33,532 nt of DNA from Bdellovibrionales bacterium RIFOXYD12_FULL_39_22. GTDB lineage: Bacteria; Bdellovibrionota; Bacteriovoracia; Bacteriovoracales; Bacteriovoracaceae. Below, one piece after another: positions 1,735-5,860 of the stretch. Made by a program: the position numbers and the translations under genes. The first letter of the stretch is position 1. Each line of letters begins with the position of its first letter. The stretch is from NCBI GenBank assembly GCA_001770205.1, contig MEQL01000033.1:1-33532 (forward strand), read 5' to 3'. The notes under the pieces were generated by a model. It was not told the DNA's origin. It saw nothing but the letters and a program-made list of their open reading frames with translations, and searched no databases.

Positions 1735-2325
1735 TTATGCTTCAGCATCTGCCGAAGTTTCTTCGGCATCCTTCGCATTTTCGCCTTTGGCGTCTTTGTC
1801 TTTTTTATCACCCTTGTCTTTCTTCTCTTTCTTTTTAGCACTTAATGTTTCGAGGCGCTTTTTTTCTTCCTTTAATTGCTCAGGGTCCATCATTACCTTA
1901 ACTTTAAAGGTGGCCTCAACTTCTGCAAAAAGTTTTGCCTTAACTTCGAATTGGCCAAGAGACTTGATAGGTTTTTCGATAACAATTAAACGACGCTCTA
2001 CATCGACACCGCGTTGTGCTAGTTCTGTTGATAGCTCAACGTTGGTTACTGTTCCAAAAAGTTTACCGCTGCCGCCAACTTTTTTAAACATTTCAATAGT
2101 TATCCCTTCCAGTTTTTTCTTGGTCTCTAGAGCAACATTTTTTTGCTCTGAGATTTTTTTTGAAAGGCCTTTTTTGCTATTCACGAGCTGTTTTTCGGTA
2201 GCAGCATCAGCAATTACGGCCATGCGATTGGGGATTAAAAAATTTCTGGCGTGGCCGGCGGATACTTTCACGATTTCACCGACGTTGCCAAGTTTGGGAA
2301 CTCTTTCTGTTAATATAACTTTCAT
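1735..2325 (-). CDS. rplI: 50S ribosomal protein L9 with charged C-terminal extension
   Basis: MKVILTERVPKLGNVGEIVKVSAGHARNFLIP and GKLFGTVT motifs; position upstream of dnaB. Confidence 0.97.
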   Translation of the reverse strand: MKVILTERVPKLGNVGEIVKVSAGHARNFLIPNRMAVIADAATEKQLVNSKKGLSKKISEQKNVALETKKKLEGITIEMFKKVGGSGKLFGTVTNVELSTELAQRGVDVERRLIVIEKPIKSLGQFEVKAKLFAEVEATFKVKVMMDPEQLKEEKKRLETLSAKKKEKKDKGDKKDKDAKGENAKDAEETSADAEA

Positions 2326-3386
2326 AACGAATCTCCTTCTTTATCATTTTTTTTTAAGAATTTTCTAAAATCAAACCATAAGTCGAAAACCCCGATGATG
2401 ACGACAATTCTCCACTCCAAATAAATTGTAAAAACAATAAACAAAGAGCGCATGAATCCGAAAATCTTCACATGGGTTAAAAAATCTAATAAAACACCAA
2501 ATCCTTGCAGAAAGTAAAAAACACTTAAGCCGGTTAGTAAGTTTTGGCCAAAGGCCATTCCTAACTTCCCGACAAAATGTTCTCCTGCCAAAACAAGGCC
2601 CAGTCCAGCAATAAGCGGCCATACCAGATATTCATTGACCTTAAAGTAGACAAGTTCTTTAAGTGCATATTTATAGGGGGTGAAAAATCTCCACGCCCGA
2701 ATGTTTTGCAGTGCCATGAATAGGTTTATCCACAAAGATATAAAAATAGTTGCAAATGCCATCGATGGTAGCCAAGGAATAACGTCCGCGACTAAACGCT
2801 CAGGTTTATCCAGTAGATCTTTTAATACTGCCGCTTCTTCTCCGCTTTCTTCTAGTAGTTTTGCATTTTCCGTTTTGAACTGAGTTAATTTTTCCGAAAT
2901 TGCCGTAGATAGATATTTTTCTAGCGAAAAATCACTGGAAAGATAAATCATCGTAAAAATTGCGGCCACAATGAGAACAATTCCCCCCCCAGCTTTTAAC
3001 AGTCCGGTAATGGGATGTTCTTGACGTAATATTATCTCTGCTAATAAAGCAGCGAAAAGAAAGTTCATCAAAAAAATACCCATGATTAGGTGAGAGCGGT
3101 CTAATTGAGCAGAAAAAGCAACAAGAAGTAGCAAGATGCCAAGTCCCAGGATGTGGCCCTTTAGGCGGCCATAGATCAAAAAGACGGAAAGTAGAGGGAA
3201 TGGAGCAAAAATAGAAAGAGGGCCTAGTGTACATAGTATTACGCTTGTTAGTCCCATAAAAAACCAGCGGCCCCACGAGTTTTGAATCTGCAATAGATTC
3301 CTCAGGTGAGTTGCCGTGTTCTCTTTCGGAGAGGCTTCCGCATTGGAAGTTTCCGGAGAGGTTGTTTTTTGTTCTGTTTTGCTCAT
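2322..3386 (-). CDS. DUF2232/YybS-family integral membrane protein
   Basis: Multiple hydrophobic segments, YFLQGFGV and C-terminal IGVFDLWFDFRK motifs; canonical position between rpsR and rplI; 4-nt overlap with rplI. Confidence 0.85.
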   Translation of the reverse strand: MSKTEQKTTSPETSNAEASPKENTATHLRNLLQIQNSWGRWFFMGLTSVILCTLGPLSIFAPFPLLSVFLIYGRLKGHILGLGILLLLVAFSAQLDRSHLIMGIFLMNFLFAALLAEIILRQEHPITGLLKAGGGIVLIVAAIFTMIYLSSDFSLEKYLSTAISEKLTQFKTENAKLLEESGEEAAVLKDLLDKPERLVADVIPWLPSMAFATIFISLWINLFMALQNIRAWRFFTPYKYALKELVYFKVNEYLVWPLIAGLGLVLAGEHFVGKLGMAFGQNLLTGLSVFYFLQGFGVLLDFLTHVKIFGFMRSLFIVFTIYLEWRIVVIIGVFDLWFDFRKFLKKNDKEGDSL

Positions 3387-3426
3387 ATTCTACCAATATC
3401 TGTCGTCTATGATTAAACGCTTCTGC

Positions 3427-4068
3427 TTACTCAGCAATCCTGTTTGAAAGATAACTGGCAATGCCAAGTTGTCTGGCCATTTTTATTTCAGAGGTTATTC
3501 TTCTCTGATATTTACGGCTAATACCACTTACTCTAGCAGGGGAAATTTTACCAAATTCTGAAATTAACCAGGAATAGGTAGCAGGATCTTTCCAGCTAGG
3601 AGTAATTTTTTTAGCAGTAAACCAACAGCTTCGGCGCTTAGAGAATTTGCGTTTGTCTGCTTCTGGATCTTCGAAATCTTCTTCTCCGGTAGTAGCGGCT
3701 GCTTCGGGAGCGGCGGCCGAACCATGATACTTTTTAGAAAAGGGAGTTTTGTATGCTTTGACGATGGATTCGCGCTTTGCGTCTTCGCCAAGTTTAACAA
3801 AAAGTGATCGGATAACCTTTTCATCGATGCCTAGACGGCGATTGATCTCTACATTACAAGTAGTATCAGCATTGTAAATGTAGTAGAGGTAGCGACCTTT
3901 GGTAACACCGTGTTTGGTGGCCTGCGCGAAGGTGCGCACTCCCCAATCATCTTGAATGAGAACGTCACCGTTGTTCTCTTTTACGACATCTGAAATCATT
4001 TTAGTGAAAGACGCAATCTTGTCGTCGATTACATCCGCATGGGCCAATATGGCCAGTTCATAAATCAT
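3427..4068 (-). CDS. rpsF-rpsR: Fused 30S ribosomal protein S6-S18 (213 aa)
   Basis: ATG at 4068 with CAGGAGG SD. The N-terminus is S6 (MIYE..., DDWGVRTFA, KGRY, EINRRLGIDEKVIR). An Ala/acidic linker follows, then S18 (KRRSCWF, WKD, ISEFGKISPARVSG, QRRITSEIKMARQLG), with no intervening stop. Confidence 0.9.
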   Translation of the reverse strand: MIYELAILAHADVIDDKIASFTKMISDVVKENNGDVLIQDDWGVRTFAQATKHGVTKGRYLYYIYNADTTCNVEINRRLGIDEKVIRSLFVKLGEDAKRESIVKAYKTPFSKKYHGSAAAPEAAATTGEEDFEDPEADKRKFSKRRSCWFTAKKITPSWKDPATYSWLISEFGKISPARVSGISRKYQRRITSEIKMARQLGIASYLSNRIAE

Positions 4069-4128
4069 AATAACCTCCTGGATTATTTTTATTAAGCCCT
4101 CGTACTGTTTCAACGAGAGCGAGTAGTT
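4069..4128 (-). promoter_or_regulatory. Putative S6:S18 ribosomal protein leader RNA
   Basis: On the minus strand, GCUCUCGU/ACGAGGGC stem, then AAUAAU-CCA-GGAGG; upstream AAC..CUC can pair with GAGGUU of the SD. Confidence 0.65.
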
Positions 4129-4273
4129 AGTTTATGATTTTTACAACCGGTCCCAGAACAAAAAGCCTATGTAGAGGCATGAGTGCAATGGGAAAACCGC
4201 AAAAATTTTATCGAAACTAACATCAAATGTGTTTTATGGCAACCAGTAAGAATTAATAGGTCTATGGCCACAG

Positions 4274-5860
4274 TTAGTATTCTTGAGGAAAAATCTCATA
4301 CTGTTCTACGTGGTAATTATTTTCGGAACGAATTATTAAGCTTTTCCCAAAGGCGTCCTCTAGGTTTTCAATAATATCTAGATCTTCTCCGCATAATCGG
4401 GCCGAGACTTCGGGGTGAGCGTAGATATGTACTTTGGATCCTTTGCTTTTCTTTAAAACTTTTAATAATTCTCTAATGAGTTCATAGCAAACGGTAAGAA
4501 TTGTTTTTACTTTGCCAGTACCTTCGCAGTGGGGGCAATTTTCGGTCAGAAGCCTTGTTAGGGTGTCGCGAGTTCTTTTTCTGGTCATCTCAACCAGGCC
4601 AAGTGCGGATATTGGAAGAACGTTGGTTTTGGCGCGATCTTTTTTTAGGGCCTCAAGGAGTGCATTATAGACGGCAACACGATTTTCTTCTTTTTGCATG
4701 TCGATAAAGTCGATAATGATTATACCGCCGCAGTTGCGTAGCCGTAATTGATAGGCAATTTCCTTAACTGCTTCTAGGTTTGTATTGAGGATGGTGTCTT
4801 CTAATGTTTTTCTTCCGACATACTTCCCGGTGTTAACATCAATCGATACCAGTGCTTCGGTTTGATCAATATTAATGGAGCCACCTGAGCGCAAAAAAAC
4901 TTTATTGCTTAAGGCCCGTTCAATTTCAAGGTCGATGCCGAAATATTCAAAAATGGGGGTTTCGCCATCATAGAGTTCGCATTTCCCCTTTATGGTTTGC
5001 ATATATTTAAGAGCAAATTTATCTACTTCTTTTAAATTTTCTTTGGTGTCGACAATGATTTTGGCCAAATCTTCATCGGTTATGTCGCGCAGAACTCGTT
5101 GAACGAAATTTAAATCTTTGTATATCATGATGGGCGCCTTAGTTTTTTCGGTGCGCTTCAAGATATCTTTCCAGATTTTAACAAGCATGTTGTAGTCGGC
5201 CTTCAATGTCTTATATGATTGTGCTTCTGCCACTGTTCTGGCTATAACTCCCTTTCCTTCTGGACGAATGGTTTCAATAATTTCTTTAAGACGTGTTCTT
5301 TCTTCTTCATTTTCGATTCGGCGAGAAACTCCTGTGTGTTCAATGAATGGCATATATACAATATGTCGTCCTGCCAAAGTTATGTGTCTGGTCACGCGAG
5401 GGCCCTTGGTAGATATCGGTTCTTTTGCCACTTGCACTATAATTTCTTGGCCCTCTTTTAAAAAGGTTTCAATTGGTCGATCTTTACAAAAACCCATGTT
5501 TACGGTTTCAGAGAGAGTGCTTAGTTCATCCGGGATAACTTCTCCTAGTCGTTCTCTGGCCGATTCTTCTAGGCCATTTTGGGCGATAAGTTTTGCCATA
5601 TCTCGCTGCTCTTGCAGAGTCGGGATGTAGGCATCGTCGACGTAAAGAAAGGCGGCCTTCTCGTAACCTATATCTACGAACGCTGACTGCATGCCCGGTA
5701 ACACTCGCAACACCTTACCTTTGTATATATTGCCTAGGCTTGGAATGCCGGCGTTGTCATCGCTGCTACGGTCCATGACAAAATCTATAATCTCGCCATT
5801 TTCCAACAGTGCCGCCCGACATTCGTTCAATGTTTGATTGATGATTAGCTCTTTGGGCAT
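4274..5860 (-). CDS. rng: Ribonuclease G/E family (Rne/Rng)
   Basis: GNIYKGKVLRVLPGMQSAFVDIG S1 domain, VQVAKEPISTKGPR, IDVNTG, LRLRNCGGIIIIDFIDM, EMTRKR, CPHCEG. Confidence 0.95.
   Translation of the reverse strand: MPKELIINQTLNECRAALLENGEIIDFVMDRSSDDNAGIPSLGNIYKGKVLRVLPGMQSAFVDIGYEKAAFLYVDDAYIPTLQEQRDMAKLIAQNGLEESARERLGEVIPDELSTLSETVNMGFCKDRPIETFLKEGQEIIVQVAKEPISTKGPRVTRHITLAGRHIVYMPFIEHTGVSRRIENEEERTRLKEIIETIRPEGKGVIARTVAEAQSYKTLKADYNMLVKIWKDILKRTEKTKAPIMIYKDLNFVQRVLRDITDEDLAKIIVDTKENLKEVDKFALKYMQTIKGKCELYDGETPIFEYFGIDLEIERALSNKVFLRSGGSINIDQTEALVSIDVNTGKYVGRKTLEDTILNTNLEAVKEIAYQLRLRNCGGIIIIDFIDMQKEENRVAVYNALLEALKKDRAKTNVLPISALGLVEMTRKRTRDTLTRLLTENCPHCEGTGKVKTILTVCYELIRELLKVLKKSKGSKVHIYAHPEVSARLCGEDLDIIENLEDAFGKSLIIRSENNYHVEQYEIFPQEY

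Follow-up and report, generated by a model that had tools for sequence, protein, structure and literature searches.

Ribosomal proteins S6 and S18 are encoded as a single polypeptide in most sampled Bacteriovoracales, behind a predicted rpsF-type leader

The window analyzed here, a 33,532-nt stretch of DNA from Bdellovibrionales bacterium RIFOXYD12_FULL_39_22, carries on its minus strand a frame of 213 codons (3427..4068) that runs without interruption to a TAA stop and encodes ribosomal protein S6 (bS6) followed by ribosomal protein S18 (bS18), an rpsF-rpsR fusion. Its ATG is preceded, 5 nt upstream, by AGGAGG, a strong ribosome-binding site. Both Pfam domains are present in the translated frame: Ribosomal_S6 (PF01250) at residues 3-92 (3793..4062, minus strand), with 62.6 bits against a cutoff of 27 and with profile positions 2-90 of 90 covered, and a complete Ribosomal_S18 (PF01084) at residues 153-203 (3460-3612), with 55.9 bits against a cutoff of 21. 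The S18 part as a whole, made up of a basic N-terminal segment and the core, extends over residues 141-213 (3430..3648, minus strand). A preliminary description of this DNA, made from its letters, had proposed that one open 213-aa frame encodes S6 and then S18, with no ssb or priB between the halves; the reading frame and the scan with the two domain models agree with this, no ssb or priB is present at the locus, and the linker string and coordinates that the description gave were correct.

Searches of the whole genome (62 contigs, 3.95 Mb, 94.6% complete) returned a single match each for S6 and S18, both of them inside this frame, which is this genome's only source of either protein. In NCBIfam, the S18 equivalog model TIGR00165 scored 52.9, above its cutoff of 38.75, the S6 equivalog model TIGR00166 scored 40.6, slightly below its cutoff of 42.9, and no dedicated model for a fused protein was matched. 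The S6 score falling under the cutoff is probably why public records of relatives are labeled "30S ribosomal protein S18" only, and genomes can consequently appear to be without S6 in public records, where the protein carries the name S18 alone.

The next gene in the probable operon encodes a DUF2232 membrane protein (2322..3386, minus strand; PF09991, 70 bits), and its stop overlaps the start of rplI, which encodes bL9 (1735..2325, minus strand; PF01281 and PF03948, with TIGR00158 at 115 bits). A DUF2232 gene lies downstream of the fused gene at 84 of 85 distinct loci of relatives. An RNase E/G gene lies upstream of the fused gene, an arrangement kept at 20 of those 85 loci. The bL9 protein is 196 aa long; its two Pfam domains reach residue 145, leaving a tail of some 50 residues rich in Lys, Asp and Glu.

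We modeled the fused chain with AlphaFold2, using a 45-sequence alignment, and obtained a mean pLDDT of 79.6 and a pTM of 0.72 for the whole chain. The model was confident over residues 1-105 (block means of 87-97), where it showed the strand-helix pattern of S6 and an extra helix at residues 96-105, and moderate over the S18 part, with block-mean pLDDT of 63-84. Foldseek comparison of the model with bS6 chains gave TM scores, relative to the target, of up to 0.89 at an rmsd of 1.4-1.7 Å (for example, 0.89 and 1.6 Å for 8buu_f, and a TM of 0.79 for 1g1x_A). By sequence, the closest solved S18 relative is that of B. subtilis (3j9w_AR, E 1.6e-11), and the S18 core can be aligned with solved bS18 over residues 140-210. 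Within that core, K196 and R199 show no variation among 45 fused homologues and occupy, in the alignment, the positions of K60 and R63 in the 75-residue bS18 chain 9h90_r; sections of Matelska 2013 (PMC3854524) name K60 and R63 as residues with which E. coli S18 contacts the CCG in the RNA.

The preliminary description had also called the S18 half divergent, with W for Y in xKD and F for R in ExGKI, and the alignment agrees. Both residues are present in genera with split genes and absent from outgroups; given that relatives with separate genes share them, these divergent residues predate the fusion and were not caused by it. Pfam scores for S18 range from 47 to 66 bits across the window's family, versus 60-95 elsewhere in the phylum. 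Cysteines of the Cys-x-x-Cys...Cys type, which we take to mark zinc-binding forms of S18, are kept in the basal unfused S18 proteins (except that of G018) and in the outgroups, and only the first Cys is found in the fused forms.

We surveyed how widely the fusion occurs, using the fused protein as a query. Matches were obtained in 40 of 41 related genomes and in 197 of 201 genomes of the order (those with records named Bacteriovoracaceae or Bacteriovoracales), and a genome was counted as fused only if it gave a full-length match without stops or if its locus had been checked at the level of the open reading frame (ORF). A single full-length match at E <= 1.4e-44 was present in 187 of the 201 genomes, and all 150 of the 150 rows among the matches listed covered the whole length of the query with no stop. 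Eight genomes gave two matches, and in two of these, G150 and G025, ORF inspection showed a fusion as well; in all, the fusion is conserved in about 189 of the 201 genomes. Two genomes gave partial matches only, and four, which are 81-89% complete, gave none. Among named genome records, 222 relatives were returned, with titles such as Bacteriovoracaceae, Halobacteriovoraceae and Bacteriovorax sp. and with two cultured isolates included, those of records NZ_AUNE01000006.1 and NZ_AUNJ01000465.1, and all 80 of the 80 loci kept consist of one uninterrupted ORF with both halves. ORF-level inspection likewise found one open frame with both halves at 93 of 93 loci, 86 of them distinct. This order-wide conservation, together with the two domains and their sole copy in the genome, supports the claim that S6 and S18 are encoded as one polypeptide. 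A survey of relatives, which the preliminary description had suggested as a check, thus upheld the fusion in most of the order, yet six genomes from five genera (G167, G174, G217, G123, G002 and G018) have separate, adjacent rpsF and rpsR genes (loci L016-L019, L025 and L026). The unfused S18 of these six has its own ATG and a low-complexity N-terminal extension of 40-60 residues rich in Asn, Asp and Arg. Given that these six genomes belong to the same family and use separate genes, the tether is not indispensable.

Outside the window's family, we scanned the phylum for S18. In all 24 genomes of the family, S18 lay in open frames of 203-321 aa, and in the 25 other families a match was obtained in 122 of 127 genomes, in frames of 79-161 aa, bar one of 222 aa. 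No fusion was found among those 122 genomes with an S18 match. The 222-aa frame (G310, L115 417-1085) was rejected as a fusion; its N-terminal extension consists of a Gly/Arg/Asp repeat of the GDRGG type, and it contains no S6. The genomes G167, G174 and G030 had looked fused in tblastn alignments that read through stops; when their DNA was aligned and ORFs were drawn from stop to stop, the genes proved to be separate.

We built a maximum-likelihood tree from the trait's own S6 and S18 proteins (204 columns, 22 rows) and rooted it with two outgroups. At its base, the six split genomes make up a paraphyletic grade, and the fused forms fall into two clades, a crown group of 12 that includes the window and G025, and a second clade of G006 and G150. 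The split genome G018 meets both fused clades in an unresolved three-way fork; the tree as drawn requires two state changes, and its well-supported branches are compatible with one. The junctions of the two clades differ, with YKTPFSKKYxGS and an acidic stretch in one versus a shorter YKNPNH-type junction in the G006/G150 clade. In two outgroup genomes, rpsF and rpsR are neighbors that share a reading frame but are separated by a stop. These comparisons point to a fusion that arose once or twice inside the order and joined genes that already lay side by side. G025 (L027, G025:C2:48472-51696) is the sole sampled member of the order's second family and has a 0.9-Mb genome that is 96% complete; its fusion has a short non-acidic linker and a very long branch.

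Upstream of the fused gene lies a predicted 5' leader of the type that binds the S6:S18 complex (4074..4124, minus strand), recognized from conservation, covariation and a covariance model. Its parts are a CUC (4123-4121), the hairpin H2 (4120-4114 paired with 4102-4096), a 3' bulge, a CC (4081-4080), an A, and the GGAGG (4078-4074) of the Shine-Dalgarno (SD) sequence. Across 25 aligned upstream regions the pattern reads ACUCG, a hairpin that varies between genomes, a bulge, (U)CC-A-GGAG(G) and the start codon. A CC(A/G) stands beside the SD in 78 of 82 distinct upstream regions of fused genes, and the window has it as CC-A-GGAGG at 4081-4074.

Support for the hairpin depended on how the sequences were aligned. 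RNAalifold recovered only three invariant pairs from a plain MAFFT alignment of the 25 upstream regions, and the hairpin pairs could be counted only after one homogeneous group had been aligned and a model built. In that group (17 sequences), both sides change in 8 of 10 H2 pairs, and 97.5% of the H2 cells are paired, compared to 79.4% in shuffles and 20-57% when the pairing is slid. In the model-fitted alignment (42 distinct rows), 91.9% of cells are paired versus 63.8% in shuffles. At E <= 1, the covariance model from the homogeneous group picked up the element in 47 of the 85 other sources, with every match ending at the fused gene's start codon, and on the window it matched 4066-4132 with 29.9 bits and an E of 2e-4. 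An outer pairing between the CUC and the GAG of the SD is possible in 22-25 of the 25 sequences; these positions are invariant and show no covariation, and the pairing is absent from the minimum-free-energy (MFE) fold of the window. The 214-nt region upstream of the window's gene folds weakly better than its shuffles (z = -1.9).

These features resemble the known rpsF leader, for which sections of two papers (PMC3854524, PMC3895269) describe a variable hairpin, a CC(R) bulge by the SD and an outer stem able to hide the SD. Like the leader described in parts of Matelska 2013 (PMC3854524), Fu 2014 (PMC3895269) and Babina 2015 (PMC4647458), the predicted element combines a covarying hairpin with a CC(A/G) bulge beside the SD and stands before rpsF. 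It differs from that leader in having no Rfam match and in that its presumed ligand is a single chain. Rfam (release 15) gave no matches at E <= 10 over positions 3300-4600 of the window, and Rfam's rpsF-leader model gave no match at E <= 1 across 19 loci. Rfam's one listed match, a snoRNA at E 0.98, was set aside as chance. The rpsF leader of this clade thus escapes the Rfam models. Versions of the leader also stand before the separate genes of the basal genera and before those of one outgroup, which argues that the leader was inherited and is not a consequence of the fusion. The fused protein presumably binds it.

Two other features of the upstream regions came to light. In one genus-like group (L057, L061, L069, L073, L086, L089-L094, L096, L100, L101, L106 and L110), a stretch of the UUCCCCUGG type lies far upstream, about 60-75 nt ahead of the start codon, and is able to pair along the entire CCAGGGGGA ribosome-binding region. 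The resulting folds, at -25 to -35 kcal/mol, would hide the CC as well as the SD, and they may represent an alternative or extended outer helix. Many relatives also have a TGnTAnnnT-like stretch (e.g., GGTGCTATGTT and GGTGTTAGGTT) about 35-50 nt before the ACUCG, which looks like an extended -10 promoter; at the matching place the window has TTGTAAAAAT. A promoter scan returned 3 sites versus 6.2 expected by chance.

S6 and S18 are a textbook pair of ribosomal proteins, which have to dimerize before binding rRNA and together repress their own mRNA. Judged from conservation, the fused gene is real, functional and lineage-wide, and it keeps both the RNA-contact residues and an autoregulatory-type leader. 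Since the cell has no other S6 or S18, both proteins must be supplied to the 30S platform by this chain. We consider it probable that this is a genuine rpsF-rpsR fusion that works as an intact, self-pairing and self-regulating chain. Residues 1 to ~105 would fold as bS6 and residues ~141-207 as bS18, with the junction motif and about 25 acidic disordered residues between them, and the junction and linker would correspond to the usual floppy C-terminal tail of S6 and the N-terminal extension of S18. The two halves would form an intramolecular counterpart of the usual S6:S18 heterodimer, dock as a preformed 1:1 unit onto the central domain of 16S rRNA once S15 has primed it, and repress translation of their own message via the hairpin-CC-SD leader directly upstream; the chain would presumably stay intact in the ribosome. 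As to its origin, adjacent genes with no ssb or priB between them probably lost a stop codon and a short spacer. According to part of the text of Fu 2014 (PMC3895269), rpsF and rpsR are adjacent without an intervening gene in most Deltaproteobacteria.

Compared to the canonical bS6:bS18 pair (1G1X, 4YBB, 3J9W), the fused protein has both domains complete, the S6 fold, the S18 core and the RNA-contact K and R. It differs in being one polypeptide with a conserved motif and about 25 acidic residues in the middle, such that neither the S6 C-terminus nor the S18 N-terminus is free. Since the order in which the genes are fused, which includes cultured predators of the Bacteriovorax/Halobacteriovorax type, can be set against its split relatives, the two offer a natural comparison for 30S central-domain assembly, stoichiometry and autoregulation.

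The segment that joins the halves has two parts. The first is a junction motif at residues 104-117 (KAYKTPFSKKYHGS; 3718..3759, minus strand), identified from the model and from the alignment of 45 fused homologues, in which K104, P109, S111 and G116 are invariant. It is modeled as the end of a helix and an extended stretch, with block-mean pLDDT of 85 and then 71, and its YKxP part is already found at the S6 C-terminus of unfused relatives. The second is a variable acidic linker at residues 118-140 (3649..3717, minus strand), delimited by pLDDT, which falls below 50 at residues 123-133, and by the homologue alignment, in which both its sequence and its length differ. Across 86 distinct fused genes, the interval between the YKxP motif and the basic block, the conserved FSKKYxGS included, measures 14-30 residues and is 30% D+E.

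E. coli S6 is glutamylated at its C-terminus and E. coli S18 is acetylated at its N-terminus, and joined termini would preclude both modifications. One reading of the conserved junction is that the tether is adaptive and not the product of neutral stop loss, with YKTPFSKKYxGS serving as a new element of the 30S platform, S18 being chaperoned by the link, central-domain assembly altered and possibly also the reading of initiation sites. We regard this as unlikely. If it were true, the junction, once fixed on one or two occasions in the order, would have gone on to acquire the invariant motif, the motif would sit beside the 16S 3' tail, the mRNA exit and bS21, and the link would chaperone an S18 that lacks two of the three cysteines kept by unfused relatives.

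Alternatively, the fused chain could be a polyprotein that is cut in the linker, with KTPFSKKYxGS as the recognition site, so that separate S6 and S18 enter the ribosome. Members of the main fused group all keep the junction motif unchanged, it adjoins a stretch that the model places as exposed and disordered, and the S6 of unfused relatives stops right after YKxP(F), which puts a natural S6 C-terminus at that very spot. However, we could identify neither a protease nor a cleavage motif, the second fused group (G006/G150 type) is still fused even though it is without FSKKYxGS, and fusions with a very short linker exist elsewhere (P0182, below). Moreover, it is hard to see what cleavage would offer beyond separate genes, which the basal genera already have. 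On balance, we find processing of this kind improbable, and we continue to favor an intact chain.

It is also conceivable that a second start in the linker, either noncanonical or driven by an SD-like sequence, gives free S18 beside the fusion. The acidic linker is rich in purines, and in 17 of 86 distinct fused genes of relatives an in-frame ATG stands behind a purine-rich, SD-like stretch in the junction, an arrangement that, given the acidic codons, has likely come about by chance. The preliminary description had noted a linker without Met; beyond that, the window's gene has no in-frame ATG, GTG or TTG at all from codon 45 to codon 196, and ATC (codon 102) and ATT (codon 155) are its only near-starts. 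With no canonical in-frame start over those codons, S18 must come as part of the fusion here. An in-frame start codon is present in the junction in 47 of the 86 distinct fused genes and absent in 39, and since those 39 are without a junction start, internal initiation is not the general mechanism. We therefore hold it to be very unlikely as an explanation, although in species whose junctions carry start codons some extra free S18 may be made.

That the fusion is accidental or nonfunctional, the result of a sequencing or assembly error or of recent stop-codon loss, was worth asking of a metagenome-derived assembly in 62 contigs, and it is effectively refuted by conservation, the decisive evidence: the in-frame fusion recurs at 44-63% identity across the ~189 of 201 fused genomes, records of cultured isolates among them, with a conserved junction and, in this genome, no other S6 or S18. 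The assembly itself reads consistently. The stretch is present in eight public metagenome runs from groundwater and soil, with no RNA run listed among those that contain it; in three of them (X1, X5 and X7) a contig spans positions 3300-4300 with 0 differences and 0 gaps, and in a fourth (X8) the region is covered in two pieces with an identical reading. Continuity across the linker is thus borne out by contigs from four runs, a comparison that is not fully independent, and weak by itself, because the runs may include the window's own source.

Fused S6-S18 proteins are not restricted to this order. A search of 1.84 billion representative proteins returned numerous distant fused forms, and both Pfam domains were found in 26 of the 27 distant representatives tested, which range from 149 to 295 aa and share 24-40% identity. 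Among 20 distant fused proteins traced to their clusters, one cluster contains named records; it has 9 members, and Gemmatimonadota or Longimicrobiales appear among the names. Most of the other distant clusters are single putative proteins from metagenomes. In the main texts of openly available papers that were searched, parts of Yutin 2012 and Babina 2015 included, we found no description of a natural S6-S18 fusion. The suggestion that the fusion is little described therefore holds for print but not for databases, where hundreds of public records exist under automatic names and similar fusions occur in other lineages. Apparently, the fusion is recurrent in bacteria, mislabeled in databases and undescribed in print. 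Given that it recurs in other lineages, and that nothing suggests a new mechanism, we regard it as modestly surprising.

A curated precedent for a ribosomal protein within a longer chain is NCBIfam PRK14538, [quoted passage not shown] In that case a ribosomal protein is joined to a nonribosomal domain, whereas both parts of the present fusion are ribosomal proteins, and they bind each other directly as separate chains. The distant S6-S18 fusions share the domain order, S6 and then S18, with the window's protein, but they have other linkers and lack the YKTPFSKKYxGS junction. The protein P0182 accommodates both domains within 149 aa, which suggests that the geometry of the pair may tolerate almost no linker.
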